From NCBI GenBank assembly GCA_022821495.1, contig JAJEDN010000043.1, positions 2,524-66,523 on the forward strand: 64,000 bases of DNA, in the 5' to 3' direction. Under the pieces are notes generated by a model, which was not told where the DNA came from, ran no database searches, and worked only from the letters and a program-made list of their open reading frames with translations. Origin of the DNA: Candidatus Poribacteria bacterium (GTDB lineage Bacteria; Poribacteria; WGA-4E; WGA-3G). Below, piece after piece: positions 1,384 to 14,833 of the stretch. Positions within the stretch are counted from its first letter, which is position 1. Each line of letters opens with the position of its first letter. The position numbers and the translations under genes were made by a program.

Positions 1384-2274
1384 ATGTTTATTAACCATAA
1401 GTTCCTATTAAGTGTAGCGTTATTGTTCAGTTTAGTTGTACCTGTTTTTTCTTTCGAGCCTTCCGGAGGTGTTTTATCGTTGGATGGTGAAGATGACTAT
1501 GCAATACTCCCTTTTGCGGAACATGGGCATATTTTCCCTGAAGGCACCCATGCGTTTACTGTTGAAGTATGGTTCTATCCAAAAACTGAACCCAAGGAAA
1601 TAGATAAAGACCTTATTCTCACGCAGCAAGTTTCCATCGGACTAAAGGCAAGAGATCAGTGTCGACTCGCAAAGAATCAACTTTGCAGTTACCGTCATGC
1701 ATATCTTTCAGGAGACAGAGGTCACGGACTTGCAGGGAGTGATAGTCCAATCGAGAAAGATCAATGGAACTATATAGCAATCATTTTCAAGAACAGCACA
1801 CTTTGTCATGCGACCAACAACCAAATTGGTCAAGGGTGGAGACTTCCTATTGTGGACAGGGTATCTTTGCATATCAATAGACCTGAAAGGGTTCAAGGTT
1901 TCGTCGTAGGCGGATATGGTGAGGATAAGTTTGTGGCGCCTAACGGTGGGTTGTTATTCCAAGTGAGCAGCTTTCATGGCGAAATTGATGCAATCCGGTT
2001 TTCAAATACGGCTCGGTATGACTGCGCCGCACAGGGCCACAATCCGTTTGATCCACCGCCCCGTTTTGTGAATGATAAACACACGTTGGCACTCTGGGAT
2101 TTCAATGACAAGGAAGGTGCTACACGCTTTGAAGACACGTCTGGGAATGGAAAGACGCTCATCGGCATGAACGGTGCCACTGTGGTTGGTGGTGAAGGTG
2201 TTGGTAATCTCGAAATTCGTCCCAACAACTCTTTAACGACAACATGGGGCCAAGTCAAGTCGGAATCGTTTTGA
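1384..2274 (+). CDS. secreted LamG (laminin G_3 / concanavalin-like) domain protein
   Basis: Signal peptide present. LSLDGEDDYAILP...FTVEVWFYP...FHGEIDAIRFSNTAR is a typical LamG pattern. Tail is SLTTTWGQVKSESF. Confidence 0.65.
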   Translation: MFINHKFLLSVALLFSLVVPVFSFEPSGGVLSLDGEDDYAILPFAEHGHIFPEGTHAFTVEVWFYPKTEPKEIDKDLILTQQVSIGLKARDQCRLAKNQLCSYRHAYLSGDRGHGLAGSDSPIEKDQWNYIAIIFKNSTLCHATNNQIGQGWRLPIVDRVSLHINRPERVQGFVVGGYGEDKFVAPNGGLLFQVSSFHGEIDAIRFSNTARYDCAAQGHNPFDPPPRFVNDKHTLALWDFNDKEGATRFEDTSGNGKTLIGMNGATVVGGEGVGNLEIRPNNSLTTTWGQVKSESF

Positions 2275-2314
2275 ACTTGAAATTCATGAACCAAACAAAA
2301 AGGAATACGCCAAG

Positions 2315-3334
2315 ATGAAACAAGCATTGCGTTATACAATATTATGGAGTCTATTCATCCTACTGGTTGGAAATGTCGAAGCCGATCAGATAGGGACACT
2401 CTCTTTTGCTTCCTACCCTCGGAGTCCTGACCTCTATCTCATAGATAGCACAGGCAAAAACTTCCAAAAACTCACAACCGATCACATAAATAAGGGGACA
2501 CCCACTTGGTCGCCGGACGGACGCTTTTTTGCCTATCATTCTAATGATAATGGGGGTCCGAACATCTATGTGGTGGATGTCAGAAACAAGACCTCTCGTC
2601 AATTGACAAACCACCGCGATAGGGACTTGTCACCCGCGTGGTCTCCGAATGGCAAATGGATCGCTTTTGAATCTGACCGAACTGGGGATCTACATATCTA
2701 CAGAATCGATGTAGACGGTTCAAATCTGATGCGATTGACAAACCGTGGAGACAACCAAAATCCTGCGTGGTCACCAGACAGTCAATGGATTGCCTATAAT
2801 TCCTATCAAGAAGGAAATCGTGATGCTGGGATTCGTGGAAGGCAATTTCTCTCTGTAATGACTGCCGATGGCAAAAGGTCGAGGCAACTGACAGAAGGCC
2901 TAAATATGTCTGGCTGTACGTGGTCTCCAGATGGAAAACAGATCGCTTTTGCTGCGGGGAATATAGGAAAAGACGGCCTGAATATCATCGTCATTGATGT
3001 CAATGGGCATAACCGCCGTGCCTTAACCGAAGTGGGTCCAAACGCATGGGCAGGGAGTCCATCGTGGTCGCCGGATGGCAAGTGGATCGCCTATTTTTTC
3101 AAGGTTTTGCCAGTATTGGATTTGGATCTTGGACACGGAATCCGAGCCATTGACTTTTGGAGTGGTGACAATGTTATCTGCGTGATAAGTCCTGAAGGTC
3201 AGAACGACGCGCAACAGCTTAAAGCAACAAGGGGATTGTCGTCCAGTCCTGTGTGGGTACCAGAGAGTTTCTTCCGGGTTTCGCCGCAACCAGAGTTGCT
3301 AACAACACAATGGGGAGAAATCAAGAGGGAATAG
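2315..3334 (+). CDS. secreted PD40/TolB-like beta-propeller repeat protein
   Basis: Signal peptide present. Repeated WSPDG/WSPNG motifs (WSPDGRFFAYHS, WSPNGKWIAFESDR, WSPDSQWIAY, WSPDGKQIAF, WSPDGKWIAY). Tail is LLTTQWGEIKRE. Confidence 0.8.
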   Translation: MKQALRYTILWSLFILLVGNVEADQIGTLSFASYPRSPDLYLIDSTGKNFQKLTTDHINKGTPTWSPDGRFFAYHSNDNGGPNIYVVDVRNKTSRQLTNHRDRDLSPAWSPNGKWIAFESDRTGDLHIYRIDVDGSNLMRLTNRGDNQNPAWSPDSQWIAYNSYQEGNRDAGIRGRQFLSVMTADGKRSRQLTEGLNMSGCTWSPDGKQIAFAAGNIGKDGLNIIVIDVNGHNRRALTEVGPNAWAGSPSWSPDGKWIAYFFKVLPVLDLDLGHGIRAIDFWSGDNVICVISPEGQNDAQQLKATRGLSSSPVWVPESFFRVSPQPELLTTQWGEIKRE

Positions 3335-3384
3335 ACTTTTGTATCTTGCTTTTTAAGAAGCAGAGCGCAGTGGAATACTTCAAA

Positions 3385-4419
3385 GTGAAACATGTATTGA
3401 GTTATGCAGCATTATGGGGTCTATTCATTCTACTGTTTGGAAATGTCCAAGCAGATGGGATCGGAACGCTTTCTTTCCTTTCCAAGGATACCGGGGACTT
3501 TGAGATCTATCTCATAGATACCCAAGGCAAAATTCGCCACCATCTTTCAACTGGATTGGCCGATATGAGTGCTCTCACTTGGTCACCTGATGGACGTTTT
3601 ATCACCTATGTATCCAATACGGGAGGAAATGCCGAGATTTATCTGATGAATGTAGGAAACCGGAAAACCCGTCGGTTGACCCATCATCTGAGCACAGATA
3701 CATCACCGGCTTGGTCGCCTGATGGAAAATGGATTGTCTTCACCTCCAACCGTATGGGGAACAACAACATTTACAAGATGGAGGTAACCGGCGCAAAATT
3801 GGAACGATTGACCCATCAAGGCAACAACAAAAGCCCTGTTTGGTCTCCAGACGGTCAATGGATTGCCTTCGTTTCCTCTCGGAACCAAAAAGAGGGTCTC
3901 TATATAATGACTGCCAATGGAAATAGGTTAAAGCGGTTGGCAGATGCATCTTTCAAGTGGGGCGGATGCACTTGGTCACCTAATGGAACACAGATTGCGT
4001 TTTCTGCTTGGGATCCTGAAGTCGAAGGAACAAACATTTTTATCGTTGACTCGGATGGAAAAAACATACGCCATCTAACCCGAGAAGAGCCAAGAGATAT
4101 TCGCTTTGATCCAAAAGTCCCACTCGCTTATCGACCTACGTGGTCCCCTGATGGTCGTTGCCTTGCCTATACTTTAGAATATCTGCGTGTTCCTAAACCT
4201 GAAGGTCTTCAAGAGGATAGGAAAGTCATCTTCCCTTTGGTGCCTCGCGACGGTGTTATCTGCATCACAAACGCCGTAGATGGAGGTAGCGGAAAACCGC
4301 TCCTGATAACAGAAGAGTTGTCATCCGATTTATCTCCGGCATGGGTGCCGGAGGGTTTCTTCCCGGTTTCGCCGCGACCACAGTTATTATCAACACAGTG
4401 GGGACAGCTAAAAAAATAG
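3385..4419 (+). CDS. secreted PD40/TolB-like beta-propeller repeat protein (tandem paralog of 2315..3334)
   Basis: GTG 3385 gives VKHVLSYAALWGLFILLFGNVQADGIGTLSF, colinear with the N-terminus of the upstream paralog. There are six WSPDG-type repeats and the tail LLSTQWGQLKK. The ORF-track start at 3253 would overlap the previous gene. Confidence 0.8.
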   Translation: MKHVLSYAALWGLFILLFGNVQADGIGTLSFLSKDTGDFEIYLIDTQGKIRHHLSTGLADMSALTWSPDGRFITYVSNTGGNAEIYLMNVGNRKTRRLTHHLSTDTSPAWSPDGKWIVFTSNRMGNNNIYKMEVTGAKLERLTHQGNNKSPVWSPDGQWIAFVSSRNQKEGLYIMTANGNRLKRLADASFKWGGCTWSPNGTQIAFSAWDPEVEGTNIFIVDSDGKNIRHLTREEPRDIRFDPKVPLAYRPTWSPDGRCLAYTLEYLRVPKPEGLQEDRKVIFPLVPRDGVICITNAVDGGSGKPLLITEELSSDLSPAWVPEGFFPVSPRPQLLSTQWGQLKK

Positions 4420-4509: not shown

Positions 4510-4543
4510 ATGCACCTTTTTGCCCTCAAAATTGTATCATTAA
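4510..4543 (+). promoter_or_regulatory. 34-nt conserved motif ATGCACCTTTTTGCCCTCAAAATTGTATCATTAA, candidate (ECF-type?) promoter, copy 1
   Basis: 32/34 identical to 9581..9614. It lies 53 nt upstream of the sigma-fusion start codon. It can be read as GCACC(T-tract)-N17-GTATC or as TGCACC-N18-TATCAT. Confidence 0.4.
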
Positions 4544-4595: not shown

Positions 4596-7500
4596 ATGGT
4601 AGAAAACGATGTTCAACTGATTCACAGAATTTTGTCGGGTGATGAACAAGCGTTCAGCACTTTAGTCCGAAAATACCAAAAGAGCGTTCACGCGCTTGCG
4701 TGGCGGAAGATTGGGGATTTTCACATCGCTGAAGAGATTGCCCAAGATGCCTTCCTGCAGGCATACAAAAATCTTGCGACACTGAGGAATCCCAACCAAT
4801 TCGCTGGATGGTTGTATGTGATTGCAAACAATCTTTGCAAGCGATGGCACCAAAAGCAGAAACTTTCTACGCGATCGCTGGAGGGCACACCTATGACAGA
4901 GATAGAGAACTCTTCTTACAAACGTTATGAATTGGAACAACGAGAGGAGGAAGCCGCTGAACGTCGGCATGAAATCGTCAAGGCACTTCTCGAAACGCTG
5001 CCGGAAAGTGAACGCACAGTTGTGACACTCCACTACCTCGGTGAAATGACAGCACAAGAAATTAGCAAATTCTTAGGTGTTTCCGTGAATACGATCAAAA
5101 GCCGGATTCGCCGGGCACGGGAGCGTTTACAAGCGGAAGAGCACCTGATTAGCGAAACGCTGGGGAGCGTTCAGATGCCTACCAATTTCATTGAGCGTAT
5201 TATGCAGCAAGTTGCTGACATCAAACCGACACCGCCTTCGGTTGGAAAACCTGTGTTACCTTGGCTCGCTTTCGGCACCGCTGCGATTCTTATAATGCTG
5301 ATGATTGGTATCGGGTCCCAATACCTGACGCGTTTTCAGAGACCTTACAACTTGAACGCCCAATCGGAAACCACTGTTGAGATCATTGAGGCACCCGTTG
5401 TCCTTGACACACAAGCAGAACCAGATGTGCGAAACCAAGCCGGACGTTCTGACACCACGGGTAGGGACAGCGGTGCTGGTCTGCAAGTTTCGGAACCCGT
5501 TGTCCCGGTTCCCGCCACCCAGATAGAAAAGGAGCCACTCCCAACACCACAGCAGTGGAAACCAGTGAGCGTACCAGCGAGCGGTCCCGTAGGCGGCTTA
5601 CTGGTAAGTTCAAATGGCGATATCTACGCCGCTTCGCGTCTTGGTATCTATAGATTAACGCCAGACACACGCACGTGGACGCTCCTCAGCCCTACAAATT
5701 TGAAGGTCCCCGGCACAATAATACCGATGACAGAGCAAAACGGGACCCTTTATCTTCTCTCTGATGATGAAGTGCTTATTTCAACCAATAGAGGCGAGAC
5801 CTGGGAGCCGGTTGGCACCCGTCCGGAAGGTGTTGCAGTCGCATTGGCCGTAACGGATGAAGCGTTGTACCTCCTGCTGAGAGATAAAGGCGTTTTCCGA
5901 TCTGAAGATATGGGACAGCAGTGGACACCACTCGGGCTTGAAGGAACGGCCAGACAAATCGTTGCTTTGGATAGTATTGAAAATACAGTGTTTGTCGGAA
6001 CACCTGAGGGACTCTATCGTATCAATCCAAGACATAATTTGACCACGGATATATGGGAAAAATTGCCGCTAAATACCACTCAAGCAATCCACTCCTTAGC
6101 GATTGCCGAGAACACCCTCTATGTCGGAACAGGCTTCGACTTAGGCTCCTCTAAAGAGGAGGAAATACGGGCACGGGCAACCGCTGGACAACCCTCGTGG
6201 GAAGTTTTTCGGTCAACCGATTTTGGCGATTCGTGGACCAACATCACACCTACAACCGAGCCAACCTTGAGGTTGTTCCCGGGCATTAAGGTCATTACAG
6301 TTGGAAAAACGCTTTGGGCATTGGGATATACCGGGTTCCAGTGCCGATCCACTGATGGTGGGGAAACATGGACAAACCACGGATACAAAAAGTTAGATCC
6401 GCTTTCAATGATGAATTCGTTTATGCTGGGTGTATTCCCCGCAGTTGGCATGGACGAAAAGATCCTATTCAAAGCCAGTCCTTTTGGACTTATCCGTTCA
6501 ACCGATGCTGGCGAATCGTGGCATCCGTTTATGACAGGCATGGTCGGAACTCGGATATCTAACTTAGTCGCATTCAAAAACGCACTCTACGCCTATACCG
6601 GTACAAATCTCGCGAAATCCACCGACGGTGGGATGTCATGGCAAGATCTACGCTTCACCCCTGATAGATTAACACCAGAATTAGGGGCGGAATTGGCTGT
6701 CGGTTTTCTATTCCGTTCTACGCAACTGGCAATTTCTGACGATAAACTCTACTGCATCGGCACCGCAATTTCCGCAGACATAGAAGGGTCCCAGCCCCAG
6801 CAGCGTATCTTCCATTTTTCTAAAAATCGCGGCGCGCTGGTACTTATGCCAGAAGCCCCTGTCTTTGGTGAAAATCTTTCTATAGAGCCGCCAAAAACTG
6901 CATCACAAGAGAGATTGGAAAAAAATATAGCAGACGATTCACCCAACACCCCTGAGAAAGTCAGTGAATCGACAGACACAACCCGCGAGCCTACAGAATC
7001 TCCCAGTGCGTTTGCAGTCAGTAGTGATACATTCTATGTGGAATATCAGCGGCGGCTCCTGCGGTGGAGACGCGGCGAACCTGAATGGTTCGACACTGGA
7101 CTCGTAGATATTGATGCGTCTGCTAACGATGAGGGCACTGATCGTTTCATTCTTGCGGTTTCAGGTGAAACCGTCTACGTTGGCAAGAGCGATGGACGTC
7201 TGTTTCGATCGCTCAATAATGGGAACACATGGAAAGACCTAACCGCAACGCTGCCCCTTCGATTCAAACATTTCAAGGATATTGTTTTTGCGGGTTCAGC
7301 GCTTTATGTCGCCACAGACGCAGGGGTCTTAACATCGACGGACAATGAAAATTGGCGAACAATAACCGATACAGCCGGTACACACACCCTCATAGACCGA
7401 ATTGCTGTAGATGATATAACGGTTTATGGTGTTGGCGATACCGGGGGCTATGAATTGAATAACCGAGGCAGATGGAAACAAATTTTCTCAACGGTGCCAA

Positions 7501-7598
7501 ATAACGTCGTCTCTATCGCTATCAGTGGCGACAGGCTTTATATTGCCACCGAACGTAGCGGGATGTTTCATGCCTCGCTTGAAAAGGAAAACGATTGA
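4596..7598 (+). CDS. ECF sigma-70 family factor fused through one TM helix to a large Asp-box/BNR beta-propeller ectodomain
   Basis: The N-terminal ~190 aa carries sigma region 2 (FSTLVRKYQKSVHALAWRKIGDFHIAEEIAQDAFLQAY) and region 4 (RTVVTLHYLGEMTAQEISKFLGVSVNTIKSRIRRARERL). The hydrophobic helix LPWLAFGTAAILIMLMIGIGS maps to nt ~5253-5324. At least 8 S-x-D-x-G-x-x-W boxes follow (STNRGETW, SEDMGQQW, STDFGDSW, STDGGETW, STDAGESW, STDGGMSW, SLNNGNTW). Confidence 0.8.
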   Translation: MVENDVQLIHRILSGDEQAFSTLVRKYQKSVHALAWRKIGDFHIAEEIAQDAFLQAYKNLATLRNPNQFAGWLYVIANNLCKRWHQKQKLSTRSLEGTPMTEIENSSYKRYELEQREEEAAERRHEIVKALLETLPESERTVVTLHYLGEMTAQEISKFLGVSVNTIKSRIRRARERLQAEEHLISETLGSVQMPTNFIERIMQQVADIKPTPPSVGKPVLPWLAFGTAAILIMLMIGIGSQYLTRFQRPYNLNAQSETTVEIIEAPVVLDTQAEPDVRNQAGRSDTTGRDSGAGLQVSEPVVPVPATQIEKEPLPTPQQWKPVSVPASGPVGGLLVSSNGDIYAASRLGIYRLTPDTRTWTLLSPTNLKVPGTIIPMTEQNGTLYLLSDDEVLISTNRGETWEPVGTRPEGVAVALAVTDEALYLLLRDKGVFRSEDMGQQWTPLGLEGTARQIVALDSIENTVFVGTPEGLYRINPRHNLTTDIWEKLPLNTTQAIHSLAIAENTLYVGTGFDLGSSKEEEIRARATAGQPSWEVFRSTDFGDSWTNITPTTEPTLRLFPGIKVITVGKTLWALGYTGFQCRSTDGGETWTNHGYKKLDPLSMMNSFMLGVFPAVGMDEKILFKASPFGLIRSTDAGESWHPFMTGMVGTRISNLVAFKNALYAYTGTNLAKSTDGGMSWQDLRFTPDRLTPELGAELAVGFLFRSTQLAISDDKLYCIGTAISADIEGSQPQQRIFHFSKNRGALVLMPEAPVFGENLSIEPPKTASQERLEKNIADDSPNTPEKVSESTDTTREPTESPSAFAVSSDTFYVEYQRRLLRWRRGEPEWFDTGLVDIDASANDEGTDRFILAVSGETVYVGKSDGRLFRSLNNGNTWKDLTATLPLRFKHFKDIVFAGSALYVATDAGVLTSTDNENWRTITDTAGTHTLIDRIAVDDITVYGVGDTGGYELNNRGRWKQIFSTVPNNVVSIAISGDRLYIATERSGMFHASLEKEND

Positions 7599-7656: not shown

Positions 7657-8592
7657 ATGGGATACTTTCGATCAGGATATCAGGGTCTGTGCAATCTATT
7701 GACGTTTTGTGTCCTTCTCGGATTTGTAGTCGTTTGCGGCTGTTCGGAATCCGAAAATCGCAACGCGTTAGCCCCACCAGAAACAACAACGCACCCAATC
7801 TCTGAAGAAGTGGTGACCGAGGTGCTGGCGGCTGTAGAAAAAAATAGGCTCGCCGCAGAAATAGAATTCGCACCGCAATTGGAGGCAGTGCCAATGGCAC
7901 CGATGCAAAGACCCCCTACAATTGCTGAGGTTATGGCACAGTTGCGCATGGAATTTCCAGGCAATGTTTTAGACGACGATTTCACAAGGATTCGAGAAAT
8001 CATCGAGTCGGAAACCTATTTAGACTTCTTGAAACGTACCTATCCGCAGGAAAATCAGTTTCAGAATTTCGATGAGTTTTGGGCGTTAGCGTCCGTGGAC
8101 ACAGAAGGGTACATGGAGTTTTTGAGCAAATATTTTAAGTCACCCCTCCCTGAACCCACTGCGGAAGATGTTGATGTACTTCATTATATGGCTTTGTTTG
8201 AGCGCAATCTAAACGTCCGCACGTATCACGACGAGGCAGTCCAAGTGAATGAAGTTATGATAGAGATGATGATGAATGAGCCCGTGCACAGTTGGTTAGA
8301 GCAACGCTTCGTTGATGCTGATGCCGTAAATATTCTGCTTTTAATAAAACTTTTGGTCTATCATAGCATTCTCGTCGATGAACACCAAGAGGAAGATCGG
8401 GAAAAGATTCATGCCCTTTTTGTTGAACATGGTACGCAAAAAGGCTTTTTACGGGTCGCGCTCCAGGAACCGGTATGCCTCGGATATGTCCTCAAAGATT
8501 TTACAGACGTTCAAGTATTCCGAAAATGGGTTGATGGCGAATTCCGTGAAGTCGCCTGGTGGAAGCAACCCCAAGACAACGAAAAAAAGTGA
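7657..8592 (+). CDS. hypothetical lipoprotein (paralog A)
   Basis: ATG 7657 follows AAGGAGA. Lipobox-like LGFVVVCGC. Shares long blocks with 8683..9480 (PPT..E....QL..E.PGN.LD..F...R......T.LDFL.R..P.E.Q.Q..D.FW.LA; ...GY.LKDFTD..V.R.W..GEF). Confidence 0.6.
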   Translation: MGYFRSGYQGLCNLLTFCVLLGFVVVCGCSESENRNALAPPETTTHPISEEVVTEVLAAVEKNRLAAEIEFAPQLEAVPMAPMQRPPTIAEVMAQLRMEFPGNVLDDDFTRIREIIESETYLDFLKRTYPQENQFQNFDEFWALASVDTEGYMEFLSKYFKSPLPEPTAEDVDVLHYMALFERNLNVRTYHDEAVQVNEVMIEMMMNEPVHSWLEQRFVDADAVNILLLIKLLVYHSILVDEHQEEDREKIHALFVEHGTQKGFLRVALQEPVCLGYVLKDFTDVQVFRKWVDGEFREVAWWKQPQDNEKK

Positions 8593-8682: not shown

Positions 8683-9480
8683 ATGCGATGCTTTGAATGT
8701 CAGAATCTTTTCAACCGGTTCGGAGTCTGTCTCTTTTTAGGAATCTCACTATTTTTCGCGTGTCAATCCAGTCCCGACCCAAGTGTTCTTGAACCTGAAA
8801 GGGAGAACATTGACATAGAGGACGGTATTGAGCCAATCGCGCGACCGCCAACGCCCGAGGAGACGTTTGAACAACTCAAACGTGAAAACCCTGGTAATAT
8901 TTTAGATAAGAACTTCAAAACGCTCCGACGGCTTGTCACATCCAAGACCTGTTTAGACTTCCTCAGACGTAACCATCCGTTAGAAGATCAATATCAGACT
9001 TATGATAAATTCTGGGAACTCGCAGCCTCTCATTCATCGCGATACATGCCATTTTTGAAGCAGACGCTTGAGAAACCTGACGAAGAAGATGCCGCGAATA
9101 CACATCTTCTCGCAGTACACTACAGACATGTTTTGATCCGTGGATACCATGGCAAAGATCCTGATACTTTTCAGGACGAATTGAAGAAGTTGATAGACGG
9201 TCCCGGAATGGATATAGCCTTTAAGCATTTTGTACATGCTGAGCGGAATGTTGTGAATGGGCTGGATCTCATTTTTTTTCTTGTGGAACTCACCCTTTAC
9301 GTTGGAAAAACTGAGCGGGCGGATGCTGTGCTCGCTGGTGAACTCTTTGATAAACATGGCGAGCATGACGCGCTTATTTGGCTCGCGCTCAAGGATCCCG
9401 TACTAATCGGATATATTCTCAAGGATTTTACAGATACTGACGTGCTACGGAGATGGATGGCAGGAGAGTTTCATCAATAA
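8683..9480 (+). CDS. hypothetical secreted/lipoprotein (paralog B)
   Basis: Signal sequence ending FFAC. Clear paralogy to 7657..8592. No family recognised. Confidence 0.6.
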   Translation: MRCFECQNLFNRFGVCLFLGISLFFACQSSPDPSVLEPERENIDIEDGIEPIARPPTPEETFEQLKRENPGNILDKNFKTLRRLVTSKTCLDFLRRNHPLEDQYQTYDKFWELAASHSSRYMPFLKQTLEKPDEEDAANTHLLAVHYRHVLIRGYHGKDPDTFQDELKKLIDGPGMDIAFKHFVHAERNVVNGLDLIFFLVELTLYVGKTERADAVLAGELFDKHGEHDALIWLALKDPVLIGYILKDFTDTDVLRRWMAGEFHQ

Positions 9481-9580: not shown

Positions 9581-9614
9581 ATGCACCTTTTTGACCTCCA
9601 AATTGTATCATTAA
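9581..9614 (+). promoter_or_regulatory. 34-nt conserved motif, copy 2 (ATGCACCTTTTTGACCTCCAAATTGTATCATTAA)
   Basis: 32/34 identical to 4510..4543. It lies 61 nt upstream of ATG 9675. Confidence 0.4.
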
Positions 9615-9674
9615 AGGGTAAATAAAGATTTGGGAAATCCCAAATTAATAGTTTTACATCCAAAGGAGTATAGC

Positions 9675-11303
9675 ATGAAAAAAATAACCCTTTTGATTTT
9701 AACCCTACTCTCCATTTTCGCTGTTAACTTACCCGCTACTTTTGCTCAAACCTACTTTCACACCCGGACACTCGCCGGACATAAAATTTCTGTCCAAGCA
9801 GTCGCATTCAAGGACGACAGCACGCTCATTAGTGTCGGGGGTGATAGCACACTTTACGCTTGGAATCTTGACACCGGTGCCCAACGTTGGCATGTCGAAG
9901 TGGGTCTCTTCTTAATCTCTGATATTGCCATCTCATCGCACGACTCGCGCTTCGTCGTTTATGCTGGAGGACTATTTTTCCGCCCTTATATTGGGATGTC
10001 TTATACAGATGACGGAGACATAAGAGGTTACCTCACAGGACATACAAACAGTGTCAATACGCTGTCCTTTAAGCCAGGGAGTTCCACCCTTGCCAGTGGG
10101 AGCGACGACGACACAATCCGTATCTGGGATTTAACATGGGATGCATGGAAGAACAAGCCAGTCCAGACGCTGCGCGGACATAGGAATAACGTTGAATCAG
10201 TTGCGTGGAGTCCTGATGGAACGCTGCTCGCAAGTGGAAGTAGAGACCGAACCGTCCGCTTGTGGAACCCAAACAACGCTGCCAATACGGCTATACTTCG
10301 CGGACATACGAATACTGTAAACTCAGTTGCGTGGAGTCCTGATGGAACGCTGCTCGCGAGTGCAAGCCGCGATGACACAATTCGGATTTGGGACCCAACG
10401 AACACGGATACCGCGCTGCACGTCTTGGAAGGGCATACCGGTAACGTCAATACGTTGGCATTCCATCCGACTGAGCCACTCCTTGCCAGTGGCAGTAGTG
10501 ACGATACGATCCGCTTGTGGAACCTCACCACCGGGGAACACCAAGCCACCCTTACGGGGCATACAGGTAGCGTTAACACAATAGCCTGGAACTCTGATGG
10601 GATACTTCTCGTAAGTGGCAGTAGTGACGACACAATCCGCTTGTGGGAGCCACTCACAGCGGTTGATATAACAGGGGACGGTAGTGTTACATATCTTGAC
10701 ATTATTGAGGTGGCAGAGAACTACGGAAAAACTGTTGCAGACGGTGCAAACCCACGCGCAGATGTCAACAAAGATGGCATCGTTGACATTGAGGACCTTA
10801 TTGTTATTGCTAAGGCAGTAGATGCCCAAGCACCAATAGATTCCCAAGCGGCACCTATGCTCGCGCAGCTGCCTCGCTCCTCTTCCTTCATCGTAGAAGA
10901 GGTACAGCAATGGATTCAAGACGCACGAGACATCGGCGCGGATGCACAGACAATTGCTGTCTTGGAACAATTCTTGACAGTATTGACACAGCAGACACAA
11001 CCTGCTCCAGAGAAAACAGCACTCTTGGCGAACTATCCCAATCCATTCAATCCGGAGACGTGGATACCCTATCAGTTAGCGAAACCAACGGAAGTCACTA
11101 TCTTCATTCATGCCATAGATGGTGCTTTGGTCCGGACGCTGCCATTAGGCGAAATGCCTGCAGGTGTCTATCAGAGTAGGTCCGATGCTGCCTATTGGGA
11201 TGGTAAGAATGCTCACGGAGAGCAAGTCGCAAGTGGTGTCTATTTCTATACGCTCAAAGCAGGGCAGTTTAATGCGACGCGAAAAATGTTAATACGGAAG
11301 TGA
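9675..11303 (+). CDS. secreted WD40-repeat protein with dockerin-like EF-hand pair and NYPNPFNPETW-type (T9SS/FlgD-Ig-like) C-terminal domain
   Basis: ATG 9675 follows AAAGGAG, then a signal peptide. About 7 WD40 units (GHTNSVNTLSF...LASGSDDDTIRIWDL, etc.). DITGDGSVTYLD and DVNKDGIVDIEDL are dockerin-like loops. The C-terminus reads LLANYPNPFNPETWIPYQL...GVYFYTLKAG. Confidence 0.85.
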   Translation: MKKITLLILTLLSIFAVNLPATFAQTYFHTRTLAGHKISVQAVAFKDDSTLISVGGDSTLYAWNLDTGAQRWHVEVGLFLISDIAISSHDSRFVVYAGGLFFRPYIGMSYTDDGDIRGYLTGHTNSVNTLSFKPGSSTLASGSDDDTIRIWDLTWDAWKNKPVQTLRGHRNNVESVAWSPDGTLLASGSRDRTVRLWNPNNAANTAILRGHTNTVNSVAWSPDGTLLASASRDDTIRIWDPTNTDTALHVLEGHTGNVNTLAFHPTEPLLASGSSDDTIRLWNLTTGEHQATLTGHTGSVNTIAWNSDGILLVSGSSDDTIRLWEPLTAVDITGDGSVTYLDIIEVAENYGKTVADGANPRADVNKDGIVDIEDLIVIAKAVDAQAPIDSQAAPMLAQLPRSSSFIVEEVQQWIQDARDIGADAQTIAVLEQFLTVLTQQTQPAPEKTALLANYPNPFNPETWIPYQLAKPTEVTIFIHAIDGALVRTLPLGEMPAGVYQSRSDAAYWDGKNAHGEQVASGVYFYTLKAGQFNATRKMLIRK

Positions 11304-11358
11304 AAACTTATTTTTTTCCTTCGCTATGAACCAAATTTCTGTTTTTGGAGGAATCAAA

Positions 11359-13272
11359 GTGAAATATGTTCTTGTTTTTGTAAGCATGGCCATCGCGATG
11401 CTCTGTCAACTCGGCTGCTCTCTTGATGAAGCGCAAACACAATCTGAGAATCCTATAACCAACGATGCAACATCCGTTCTTAACGCCCCACGCTTTGTCG
11501 GAAATGTTGTCTTGGAAAATATGTATGCGGATGAAACTGGGAAACTGGCAAACAAAACACCACTGGAAATCATTACCGTGCTTGAAGGCACTGGCAAAGT
11601 CAGTCTTCAGGCTCGCTTTCGGTCAGTTAAAGACGGACCTTATGGATCACCCGTCTACGAATGTGAACTGATTGATGAATCAGCAGAGATTGCCCGGGGA
11701 ATGTCAGGCAGTCCAGTAGGCCCCCCGGGCCGTGTAATGGGTGCTCTCGCTTTCGGATACTGGTATAGTAAACCGCCGCACCGGTTCTTGGTCACACCCA
11801 TTGATTATATGGAGACAGCCATACACCATCCAACGTTTGGTGAATTTTTGAATGGAGAGGCGGCACCCGCTGCCCCCGCACTGGCGATGAATGCTACGTA
11901 CGCGCCAGTTAAAACACCTGTGATAATGACAGGGATCCAGCCCCACAGAATTCAAGAACTTTCTTCACATCTCTCTGACTCAAAATTCGATTTTGTTGAA
12001 TTGGTCGGTGATATCGGCGGCGCGCCTGCAGCACCGCCTGCAGATGCCACAACAAAACTCTTTGCGGGGGATATGATTGGTGCTGCCGTCGCTACCGGAG
12101 ATGTTACGAGCCTCATTGGCTATGGAACAGTGACACAGGTTTATGATGATAAATTTGTAGCCTTCGGTCACCCATTCTTTGCAGATGGGCAGTCTGCACT
12201 ACCGGTATATAGAGCTGTAACCCATGGAATCAGGTCCAACTTGACAGCATCAACTAAATCTGTCTCAGCGTACGGAAATCCGATCGGGACAATAACTAAA
12301 GACCTACATCCTGGAATTGTAGGGGAGCTCGGTCCGGGCCCCGCAATGATTCCAGTAAAGGTCTCTTACCGTCCCGTTAATAATAACACACCTATAGAGA
12401 AACATCATGTTGTCGCTTACGGCCAAGAGTGGGCACTTTCGTACGTTGCCGCAGTAACAATGGACGCAATTCGGATGGAGCGGAACGTCGCAACAGTTGA
12501 AGGAACTGTAACGCTTCACTTTCAAGAAACCGAGACTGTGTATACAGAAAAGTTTCGGACAGCCTCTTCAAACCCGTTTTTCGATGTGTTCATAAAGACG
12601 GGGTCAATTATTGACGCGTTCACTAATACACTTACAAACAACGCGGGCAAAGCAACCTTGAAAGCTGTTTCGATTTCTATCGTGGACAAACCGCAAATTG
12701 CCACAGCCGAAATTGACGAAATTATTGTGCCTGCTGAAGTGATGCCCGGAGAAAGTCTCACGGTTTCGGTGGTGCTACTTCCACACTGGAGCACTGCTGG
12801 TGCTGAGAGGATAATTCAAAGGGAAGTTATACTTGACATCCCTGATGGCTTCCCGATGGGTGAAGCAAATCTCACAGTTTCCGCCGCCGATGAATCGACT
12901 GACGACACAGAATTCACACAACTCTTCGGCAATATTTTCGATGAACTCTTAGGCGAGGAAGAAGAAGAAGATGAAAAACCGTTGCCAAGAAACCTCGACG
13001 AACTCATCCGTCAGAAGGAAGAGGATCAAATGGATGCAGGGTTAATTACAATAACGCTGACACCATCAGCTTTTGGTGGTGGATTCGCATTACCGGAAGA
13101 TTTACCGCTGCCAGAAGGCTTCCCACTCCCAGATGATTCGGAGGAACAGCCTATAGAAATTGAACTCATTATTGAAGGCTTTATCGTAACCGGGTCTAAA
13201 GAGGCACAAATTGTGATTAAAGTGGGAAACATGGAAGCCGGTGTACTGCGAATAGAGGGCGCACAACAATAA
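11359..13272 (+). CDS. SpoIVB/peptidase-S55-like domain lipoprotein
   Basis: GTG 11359 lies 7 nt after GGAGG (ATG 11326 is an alternative). Lipobox is LCQLGC. ARGMSGSPVGPPGRVMGALAFGY...TPIDYME matches the GMSGSP(I/V)...GA serine motif of S55 peptidases, and FVAFGHPFF is a possible His motif. There is an acidic linker EEEEEDE. No His precedes the Ser motif, so the call is tentative. Confidence 0.5.
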   Translation: MKYVLVFVSMAIAMLCQLGCSLDEAQTQSENPITNDATSVLNAPRFVGNVVLENMYADETGKLANKTPLEIITVLEGTGKVSLQARFRSVKDGPYGSPVYECELIDESAEIARGMSGSPVGPPGRVMGALAFGYWYSKPPHRFLVTPIDYMETAIHHPTFGEFLNGEAAPAAPALAMNATYAPVKTPVIMTGIQPHRIQELSSHLSDSKFDFVELVGDIGGAPAAPPADATTKLFAGDMIGAAVATGDVTSLIGYGTVTQVYDDKFVAFGHPFFADGQSALPVYRAVTHGIRSNLTASTKSVSAYGNPIGTITKDLHPGIVGELGPGPAMIPVKVSYRPVNNNTPIEKHHVVAYGQEWALSYVAAVTMDAIRMERNVATVEGTVTLHFQETETVYTEKFRTASSNPFFDVFIKTGSIIDAFTNTLTNNAGKATLKAVSISIVDKPQIATAEIDEIIVPAEVMPGESLTVSVVLLPHWSTAGAERIIQREVILDIPDGFPMGEANLTVSAADESTDDTEFTQLFGNIFDELLGEEEEEDEKPLPRNLDELIRQKEEDQMDAGLITITLTPSAFGGGFALPEDLPLPEGFPLPDDSEEQPIEIELIIEGFIVTGSKEAQIVIKVGNMEAGVLRIEGAQQ

Positions 13273-13287
13273 TTTCAGAACGCTATT

Positions 13288-13317
13288 GTATGGACAGGTA
13301 TTCATACCTGTCCATAC
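13288..13317. terminator. perfect 13-bp stem / 4-nt loop hairpin between convergent genes
   Basis: GTATGGACAGGTA-TTCA-TACCTGTCCATAC lies 16 nt after the stop at 13272 and 68 nt after the stop of the minus-strand gene. Confidence 0.6.
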
Positions 13318-13384
13318 GGCATTATAAGTAAAGCGTCTTTTGCGCTCGTGTGCTTCGCCAAGGTGTTTTGTCCGCGTTGTAGTG

Positions 13385-14833
13385 TTATGGCAGCAATTTC
13401 CGCAACGTCTGAATCAGTGTGCTCTCCGAAAACCATTTCCCTGCTACGCGCCACACACTGCTCGAAAACGTCGGATACACATGGATCATCCCGCTCAACT
13501 TCCGCAACGGTATTCCGGACTGCATCGCCAGCACATATTCATGCACGACCTCACCCGCATTCGTCCCGACGAGATGGACCCCCAATATCTTTCCCGTCCA
13601 CCGAGTCGCAATAACTTTACTGAACCCGTGCGTCTCGCCTTCCGCAACGGCTCTGTCAACATCGTTTTGGTCGAGTGTGAACACGTCAACGTCCCCATGT
13701 TTCTCGCGTGCTTCCGCCTCGGTGAGACCACACCGTGCAACCTCCGGGTCACAGAAGGTCGTCCACGGCACAACGGCATAGTTGATTGTGTTGGAAAGCG
13801 GGAAAAAGATATTCCGAAGGAGCAGCTGCGCTTGGAAAGCGGCGACGTGTGTGAATAGGTAGTGCCCGATCACATCGCCTGCGGCGTAGATGTTTTTGAC
13901 GCTCGTCTGAAGTCTCTTGTTGACTTCAATCCCGCGGCTGCCGACCTGCACGCCGATTTTGTCGAGTCCTAACCCTTCCACATTCGGTGCGCGTCCGGCG
14001 GCAATCAGGATTTTGTCAAAGGTCTGTTCTACTGTTCCGTTTTCGCTACCATTGAAAGCGAAGTGCTGTCGTTTAAACTGGACGTTTATACCATCTTCGC
14101 TTTCGGAAACTTGCGCGATACCCGTATTGAGTCGGATCGCAATGCCCTCCCCTCGCAGGTAACGCAGCATCTGCTCGGAGACATCGGTATCCTCTTTTGT
14201 GAGGATACGTCCGCTCCGTTGTGCGATCATCACATCGGCACCGAGACGATGAAACGCCTGTCCGAGTTCAACACCGATCGGACCCGCACCGACAACAAGC
14301 AATCGTTCTGGGAATTCTTCTAACTCCCAAACAGTTTCACTGTCGAGATAGTCGCAAGATTCTAACCCGGGTATAGGCGGCGCGACGGGACGCGAACCGG
14401 TACTTATCACAAACTTTTTGCTTTTGAGCGTGCGCGTCTCTCCGTTTTCGGTATCTTCTACAACGAAAGTACCGCTTGATTCAAAATGCCCATCTCCGAA
14501 GATGACATCGACACCCATCTCACGGAACCGCTCCGGGTTGTCGTGCTCTTCTTCTATGACGTGTTGTGTTCCTCGGACATACGCCATCACGCGCTGCCAA
14601 TCAGGTGTGGTTTCTGGGACAGTAATGCCGTATTTCTCTGCGTGCTGGATGGAATTCGCCACCTTCGCCGCTTTCAATAAGGCTTTGGAAGGCACGCATC
14701 CTGTCCAGAGGCAGTCGCCACCGATGCGATGCTTCTCCACAAGTGCGGTTTTTTTCCCTAATCTCGCCCCCGCCACAGCGAGCACGAGTCCAGCACTGCC
14801 GCCGCCGATAATTGTCAAATCGTACACAGCCAC
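13385..14833 (-). CDS. class I pyridine nucleotide-disulfide oxidoreductase (dihydrolipoyl dehydrogenase / mercuric reductase family)
   Basis: Contains IIGGGSAG (FAD), the redox-active GGDCLWTGCVPSK motif, a second Rossmann VVGAGPIGVE and a dimerisation-domain HVYPT. GTG 14833 follows GGAGGTGG (GTG 14854 is an alternative). Confidence 0.8.
   Translation of the reverse strand: MAVYDLTIIGGGSAGLVLAVAGARLGKKTALVEKHRIGGDCLWTGCVPSKALLKAAKVANSIQHAEKYGITVPETTPDWQRVMAYVRGTQHVIEEEHDNPERFREMGVDVIFGDGHFESSGTFVVEDTENGETRTLKSKKFVISTGSRPVAPPIPGLESCDYLDSETVWELEEFPERLLVVGAGPIGVELGQAFHRLGADVMIAQRSGRILTKEDTDVSEQMLRYLRGEGIAIRLNTGIAQVSESEDGINVQFKRQHFAFNGSENGTVEQTFDKILIAAGRAPNVEGLGLDKIGVQVGSRGIEVNKRLQTSVKNIYAAGDVIGHYLFTHVAAFQAQLLLRNIFFPLSNTINYAVVPWTTFCDPEVARCGLTEAEAREKHGDVDVFTLDQNDVDRAVAEGETHGFSKVIATRWTGKILGVHLVGTNAGEVVHEYVLAMQSGIPLRKLSGMIHVYPTFSSSVWRVAGKWFSESTLIQTLRKLLP

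Follow-up and report, generated by a model that had tools for sequence, protein, structure and literature searches.

SpoIVB of Bacillus subtilis (MEROPS S55, clan PA; 9lnf) is an extracytoplasmic serine peptidase whose 2025 crystal structure has a PDZ domain inserted into the protease core and places the classically assigned Asp363 24 Å from His236 (PMC12502668). Among extracytoplasmic function (ECF) sigma factors, IutY of Pseudomonas putida, the ECF52 protein SCO4117 and ECF48/53 are sigma/anti-sigma fusions activated by regulated proteolysis, with Prc and RseP acting on IutY (PMC8999054), and the ECF57-type sigmas form a lineage-expanded family with a long C-terminal beta-propeller extension (PMC8999054, PMC7826278). 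Here we analysed a window of 64,000 nucleotides, the whole stretch examined, from contig JAJEDN010000043.1 of Candidatus Poribacteria. It carries a gene for an S55-like protein in one co-directional block with a gene for an ECF sigma factor that is joined through a transmembrane (TM) helix to a BNR propeller. The nearest proteins, and likewise all of the 80 related genome loci that were surveyed, belong to the same phylum. An earlier note on this DNA had proposed that the S55-like lipoprotein and the tethered sigma factor form a proteolytic sigma-release unit analogous to the SpoIVB pathway.

We found that the S55-like protein belongs to a very large family, with thousands of sequence clusters in several diderm lineages, which, judged from alignments and conserved residues, is a circularly permuted, PDZ-less branch of S55 with conserved Ser, His and Asp. 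The three peptides quoted in the earlier note (ARGMSGSPVGPPGRVMGALAFGY, TPIDYME and FVAFGHPFF) are all present in the open reading frame (ORF). Its GTG start at 11359 coincides with the start of most homologues and is used here for residue numbering. The GMSGSP motif holds Ser116 (codon 11704-11706), and the barrel that follows holds Asp248 in a GD motif, His271 in AFGHP (codon 12169-12171), Lys300 and Asp315 (codon 12301-12303); when counted from the alternative ATG start, the predicted catalytic residues are S127, H282 and D326. As the note had observed, no His precedes the Ser motif, the first His being residue 141. The AFGHP His does lie downstream of the Ser, although at a distance of 155 residues (S116 to H271) and not the ~170 given before. 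The protein begins with a hydrophobic signal that closes with LGC followed by S, and this Cys is invariant in 27 relatives (C31 in the ATG numbering), which fits the predicted lipoprotein.

The outcome of the Peptidase_S55 profile check that the note had suggested depended on the level at which it was made: the relationship holds for the family, whereas the window protein alone falls below the Pfam cutoff. An exhaustive profile search recovered 3,608 cluster representatives with E <= 1e-3, and 2,278 when E <= 1e-10 was required. With clusters taken at 50% identity, the rough size of the family is 2,000-3,600 clusters, and the weak end of the longer list may include canonical SpoIVB proteins. 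Most representatives are 540-680 aa long, with the profile match spanning from the Ser motif to about position 520. In a diverse sample of 57 family sequences, 20-25% identical to the window protein, 54 matched PF05580 (best E 6.5e-14). Invariance in all 57 was confined essentially to the columns of GMSGSP, G-A and G-H, one Lys, and a few Gly and Thr; Asp248 and Asp315 were each kept in at least 90% of them. Ser, His, Lys and Asp were retained in every poribacterial copy examined. One sampled member is labelled by NCBI as a 'SpoIVB peptidase S55 domain-containing protein', and automated annotation already records the S55 affiliation. Proteins so named (for example MDI3279762.1, from a Bacillota metagenome-assembled genome (MAG)) come from non-sporulating or diderm hosts and share both the family and the permuted layout; their names are annotation labels only, and the window protein is a divergent poribacterial member at the identity given above.

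The note had also expected a catalytic arrangement different from that of SpoIVB. This was borne out: the Ser barrel lies ahead of the His barrel, and a conserved Asp follows 44 residues past the His. All 57 members have Ser before His, spaced by 140-180 residues, in place of the His-then-Ser order of SpoIVB and other clan PA peptidases. When proteins were split before scanning, the N-terminal ~100-135 residues of distant members matched the C-terminal half of PF05580 (positions 112-210 of 210) with 38-45 bits, above the Pfam cutoff. One His fragment matched PF05580 positions 15-80, and PF05580 was the sole Pfam family to recur among the His fragments (9 of 51). Comparison with SpoIVB itself, using a sequence verified against the deposited chain 9lnf, placed the Ser barrel firmly: the family profile matched SpoIVB residues 307-396 at 62.7 bits in hmmsearch, which reported no second domain, and hhalign gave a probability of 98.6% with E 1.3e-15.

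The His barrel was compared after PDZ residues 123-211 had been spliced out of a 98-sequence SpoIVB alignment. In this form hhalign aligned 102 columns with a score of 29.4 (P 1.4e-4) and set the family His on His236. A null distribution from column shuffling (n = 150) had a mean of 12.5, a standard deviation of 2.3 and a maximum of 22.1, and none of the 150 shuffles reached 29.4. The relationship of the His barrels became clear only once the SpoIVB PDZ domain had been removed. The family strand L-x-P-G-x-A-I-G-V-x-L aligns with SpoIVB 107-118, ahead of the PDZ domain. Across both barrels, the residues of the window protein pair with those of SpoIVB as S116 with S378 (in GMSGSP), H271 with H236 (in G-H), D248 with D213 (in the upstream G/R-D), K300 with K264 and D315 with N290, and a G-I-x-G motif aligns as well.

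The two proteins share an extracytoplasmic setting and a homologous core, and differ in how that core is built. In SpoIVB a PDZ domain splits the His barrel after its first strand; no Pfam PDZ family was found in the window protein or in the 57 diverse members, whereas genuine SpoIVB proteins all carry PDZ families. The segment between the swapped barrels, which with its short flanks varies from 72 to 117 residues across the family, matched the SpoIVB PDZ region in hhalign only at the flanking strand. We had considered this insert as a PDZ remnant, as duplication and truncation of a PDZ-N-C ancestor would predict, and rejected the idea for lack of similarity. The window protein is in addition a predicted lipoprotein of ~640 aa with extra C-terminal domains, and its host is a non-sporulating sponge symbiont.

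The first AlphaFold2 (AF2) run, made with 27 sequences of 60-90% identity, was discarded with a predicted local distance difference test (pLDDT) score of 45 that stayed below 50 across the whole protease region. A deeper alignment yielded a model with pLDDT 84.6 and a predicted template-modelling score of 0.81, in which two six-stranded barrels are seen. Barrel 1 with its helix occupies residues 68-153 (six strands and the terminal helix, pLDDT >90), then comes a poorly ordered linker and insert (pLDDT low over residues 167-178), barrel 2 at residues 239-324, and further beta/alpha domains. In the model, the C-terminal region starts with beta-sandwich and helix domains at residues 328-512, continues with an acidic linker rich in Pro and Glu, and ends in a small beta domain that is conserved. 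Many Foldseek matches to trypsin-like proteins aligned about half of each protease, with probability 0.8-0.9 and E >=0.2, a result to be expected when a permuted fold is aligned sequentially.

The chymotrypsin residues His57 and Asp102 are 45 residues apart, and His271 and Asp315 are separated by 44. We infer that Ser116, His271 and Asp315 form the catalytic triad. The alignment of Asp315 with Asn290 further suggests that SpoIVB lost the canonical Asp and that the permuted branch retains it, a point that bears on the triad question raised by the 2025 SpoIVB structure. It is very improbable that the window protein is instead a catalytically dead pseudo-protease acting as a binding or scaffold module. 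Such a role would fit its poor PF05580 score and the sequence GPPGR after the Ser motif, where the family typically has YIDGK, but Ser, His and Lys300 are invariant, and the Asp is kept in at least 90%, of 57 sequences at 20-25% identity, a pattern unexpected without catalysis.

No paper describing a permuted S55 domain was found in the literature searched. Three features appear to be new: a permuted architecture that lacks the PDZ domain and has an Asp at the canonical triad position, how large the branch is, and the conserved cluster of sigma factor, lipoproteins and protease with a common motif. It is unusual for a chymotrypsin-fold protease to be circularly permuted in nature, and sequential aligners easily miss such a case. 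Because the barrel order is swapped, current models annotate only half of the family's catalytic domain, for which the present comparison defines the architecture.

The gene block around the S55-like ORF is as the earlier note described it. On the + strand at 4.5-13.3 kb it comprises, in order, the sigma-TM-BNR gene, two lipoprotein genes (lipoA and lipoB), a WD40 gene and the S55-like ORF (Table 1). All cluster partners bear a signal peptide or TM segment placing them outside the cytoplasm.

Table 1. Positions of the features of the gene block, counted from the first letter of the window
Feature	Coordinates	Strand	Basis or remark
Promoter-like motif, copy 1	4511-4538	+	TGCACC, 16 nt, TGTATC; ends 58 bp ahead of the sigma start codon
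ECF sigma-TM-BNR/Sortilin fusion	4596-7598	+	1000 aa; Pfam, NCBIfam, hydropathy
lipoA, lipoprotein	7657-8592	+	Signal peptide and Cys; no known domain
lipoB, lipoprotein, paralogue of lipoA	8683-9480	+	
Promoter-like motif, copy 2	9582-9609	+	Heads the WD40 and S55-like transcription unit
Secreted WD40 beta-propeller protein	9675-11303	+	Pfam WD40 4e-71
S55-like ORF	11359-13272	+	GTG start; ATG alternative 11326 (648 aa)
S55-like, signal peptide and lipobox-like LGC	11359-11418	+	Invariant Cys, hydropathy
S55-like, first beta-barrel (Ser)	11491-11832	+	Equivalent of the SpoIVB C-terminal (Ser378) barrel
S55-like, inter-barrel linker and small alpha/beta insert	11833-12057	+	Variable; not PDZ-like
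S55-like, second beta-barrel (His)	12058-12339	+	Equivalent of the SpoIVB N-terminal (His236) barrel
S55-like, C-terminal region, function unassigned	12340-13272	+	AF2 secondary structure and pLDDT; no Pfam family

In the sigma fusion, Sigma70_r2 and r4_2 were matched at residues 23-178, with regions 2 and 4 lying within residues 1-182, and the NCBIfam model sigma70-ECF scored 94.9 bits. Hydropathy indicated a single TM helix at ~218-244 followed by a ~90-residue Pro/Thr/Glu-rich linker, and the propeller repeats past residue 340 matched Pfam BNR, Sortilin-Vps10 and DUF6242. A single polypeptide thus combines an ECF sigma with a TM helix and a domain outside the cytoplasm. Sigma region 4 and the TM helix are only ~35 residues apart, which leaves no room for a class I anti-sigma domain, so that a release or conformational signal would be needed.

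The upstream motif that the sigma gene and the protease unit were said to share is real: it reads TGCACCTTTTTG.CCTC.AAATTGTATC, or in another form TGCACC(C/T)TTT...AAATTGTATC. This 28-bp element occurs in only two copies in the 64 kb, where shuffled sequences gave an expectation of 0. In relatives, one copy stands ahead of the sigma gene and a second ahead of lipoA-lipoB-protease or WD40-protease. Among paralogous sigma genes it was present only where the sigma domain is at least ~69% identical. Such a distribution is consistent with a cognate, autoregulated ECF promoter. A gap of 55 bp separates the WD40 stop from the protease start. As the protease unit is headed by the sigma's motif, the protease is most likely expressed under that sigma. 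A scan of the gene block for terminators and sigma-70 promoters gave nothing informative.

We then compared gene neighbourhoods across genomes. From the first four contigs it had seemed that the sigma linkage was lost beyond close relatives, a view overturned by the survey of 80 poribacterial loci. Among orthologues (~75-91% identical) in distinct loci with enough flanking sequence, 17 of 18 have the sigma-BNR gene upstream on the same strand; the single exception, L004/L016, is 79% identical. The orthologues of the two genes, whose separation in other genomes would have spoken against the note's proposal, are therefore linked. Five linked loci (L014, L015, L017, L018 and L068) have lost the outer synteny, and their order is sigma-BNR, S55-like and then a lipoprotein where detected. 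In the subgroup of 75-78% identity the flanking Pyr_redox, amidohydrolase and PD40 genes are gone. Copies 44-49% identical were linked to a sigma-BNR gene in 2 of 10 cases (L075 and L082), in other gene orders. The main poribacterial paralogue (50-66% identical), which lies in a FIST-FolD-SDR context, was linked in 0 of 56 loci, and genomes with the sigma-linked copy also carry this main paralogue in its housekeeping-like FolD/SDR setting. The sigma linkage is real but lineage-specific.

It could be argued that this adjacency is inherited synteny without functional coupling, around a general envelope housekeeping protease. Sigma-BNR genes are numerous and often tandem, which raises the chance of adjacency; the orthologous loci are not independent; and distant family members have varied neighbours. 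We regard this as quite improbable, as the pair is kept in the 75-78% subgroup despite lost flanks and a rearranged order, the promoter-like motif is repeated ahead of the protease unit, and the same genomes keep a separate paralogue in the housekeeping-like context.

Coupling of the two genes is what we favour. The window protein is probably a permuted, PDZ-less S55 envelope lipoprotein peptidase that was recruited to one sigma-TM-BNR cluster and is likely a member of its regulon. On this reading, ORF 11359-13272 would encode an extracytoplasmic, lipid-anchored serine peptidase of S55 (clan PA) with its Ser barrel first. One poribacterial paralogue would have entered the cluster of one sigma-TM-BNR fusion and a small lipoprotein pair, the sigma would drive transcription of the protease via the common ECF-type motif, and the protease would have its substrates in the envelope or outside the cell, perhaps with parts of the signalling cluster among them. 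This offers a concrete candidate for the wiring of one member of the expanded poribacterial sigma-TM-propeller sensors in uncultivated sponge symbionts.

Several results weigh against this reading. The window protein reached only 19.8 bits (E 8.7e-4) against PF05580, below the gathering cutoff of 25; the match is confined to 33 residues that surround the Ser, at profile positions 159-191 of 210, and TIGR02860 (spore_IV_B) gave 12.6 bits against a cutoff of 305. Judged by these scores, the S55 resemblance of this protein is beyond chance, yet below threshold for a single sequence. In the unspliced hhalign comparison the His region fell on SpoIVB 208-322 in the right register at a P of just 0.02, a HMMER search of the PDB sequences with the His-region profile did not recover SpoIVB, and no Foldseek match of the whole chain reached E 1e-3. 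On the genomic side, the adjacency among orthologues is partly inherited synteny and amounts to few independent observations, and the motif is a putative promoter of the linked sigma.

The earlier note had gone further, envisaging a self-contained signalling unit with a site-1-type protease. According to this model the S55-like lipoprotein is dedicated to cutting the juxtamembrane linker of the sigma-TM-BNR protein on ligand binding, after which a site-2 protease could free the sigma. By analogy, DegS and RseP act on RseA. The linkage survives rearrangement in the 17 of 18 orthologous loci and is joined by two adjacent pairs in distant paralogues. Both proteins are in the same compartment, the ~90-residue linker of the sigma is exposed just outside the membrane, and the ~35 residues before the helix have no space for an anti-sigma domain of class I. 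There is also documented precedent for sigma/anti-sigma fusions being activated by proteolysis (PMC8999054).

The reciprocal survey gave a different view. An S55-like gene was found within 8 kb of about 1 in 60 sampled sigma-BNR paralogues (L100), which indicates that the class generally needs no adjacent protease, and, as noted, the most widespread poribacterial S55-like paralogue is not sigma-linked in any of its 56 loci. In other phyla the family lies in general envelope contexts. A general sigma-release device does not agree with these counts. A protease behind the sigma's own motif is moreover placed as a target, and a sigma-induced activator would give an unchecked positive loop. The known site-1 proteases (DegS, PrsW and Prc) are not usually encoded beside their sigma, which also speaks against the model. 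Because reciprocal linkage is lacking, the gene sits behind the sigma motif and the family has envelope contexts elsewhere, a site-1 role is the less likely reading, and we consider it rather unlikely. If it were true, S55 proteases would serve in sigma-activating signalling beyond sporulation, and would do so in a lineage that has dozens of such sensors.

The analogy to the SpoIVB pathway drawn in the earlier note is loose, given that the protein has no PDZ domain, the host does not form spores, and the neighbours examined, where no dedicated homologue search was made, showed no SpoIVFA/SpoIVFB/pro-sigma-K context. In common with the IutY/ECF52-type fusions, the poribacterial protein unites in one chain a sigma domain, a TM helix and a sensor outside the cytoplasm, for which site-1 and then site-2 cleavage has been proposed. 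It differs in having a BNR/Sortilin propeller and no recognisable anti-sigma or zinc-finger domain, and its candidate protease is S55-like, not Prc. The likeness to ECF57-type sigmas is one of architecture: the propeller is WD40-like there, whereas the poribacterial proteins have a BNR/Sortilin propeller after a TM helix, with WD40-like sequence in some paralogues.

ECF-sigma/TM/BNR-propeller fusions are greatly expanded in Poribacteria and often lie in head-to-tail tandem arrays. At L119 (1250-18000), five sigma N-domains are spaced ~3.3 kb apart within 19 kb; further arrays or copies are present at L123, L142, L099 and L125, and contig Ga0209543_1000003 carries at least five loci. In some paralogues the same sigma domain and ~300 N-terminal residues are followed by WD40-like instead of BNR-like sequence. 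Such versions were seen at L143 (5773-7743), L145, L150, L152, L153 and L159, just past the sigma match at 8001. Such variants suggest exchange of the extracytoplasmic propeller on a shared sigma-TM chassis. No description of the expanded family was found in the papers searched.

The two lipoproteins are related to each other (33% identity, E 5e-50). The listed GTG start of lipoA at 7525 overlaps the sigma gene, and ATG 7657 is the likely start. Neither protein matched Pfam or NCBIfam, and lipoB had no meaningful match in the PDB. A lipoA/B-like gene adjoins the S55-like gene wherever it was detected, in 15 of the 18 orthologous loci (none in L003, L010 and L018), and it sits either between sigma and protease or just downstream (for example L014, 10127-10888). 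At L090 a lipoA/B-like gene (11419-12177) follows a sigma-BNR gene without a protease nearby. The lipoA/lipoB family is a candidate modulator.

The WD40 gene, which the note had counted as a part of the unit, is not conserved in this role: only about 6 of the 18 orthologous loci have it, in one of them downstream. Its listed start is TTG 9630, and ATG 9675 yields a clean signal peptide. The protein contains a dockerin-like segment and a C-terminal domain that passes TIGR04183 (25.7 bits, cutoff 23) and resembles the FlgD Ig-like domain. A type A sorting-like domain of type IX secretion (T9SS) is unexpected outside Bacteroidota-type T9SS organisms.

Some further observations concern the neighbourhoods. 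Just 5' of the sigma gene in the window are three tandem PD40 (TolB-like propeller) paralogues (3-428, 2315-3334 and 3385-4419); most orthologous loci of at least 80% identity likewise have a PD40 gene upstream, which is absent from the 75-78% subgroup. At L082 (6386-11864) the order of the window is reversed, with a motif-like TGCACCTTTTTCACCTCAAAAATACGTC directly 5' of the distant S55-like copy and the sigma-BNR gene after it. L001 carries two S55-like paralogues in tandem (10001-12058 and 12328-14295), the second encoding a 655-aa protein without a Pfam match. In two diderm Bacillota MAGs (L087, 688-15926, and L088, 98-16013) the same order was seen, namely flgH-flgI-flgJ, NAGPA, the S55-like gene, TamB, an ECF sigma with its neighbour, and BamA, which hints at a role of the permuted S55-like family in outer-membrane biogenesis. 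At L086 the S55-like gene follows cysS and precedes a propeller protein, with a TPR protein next.

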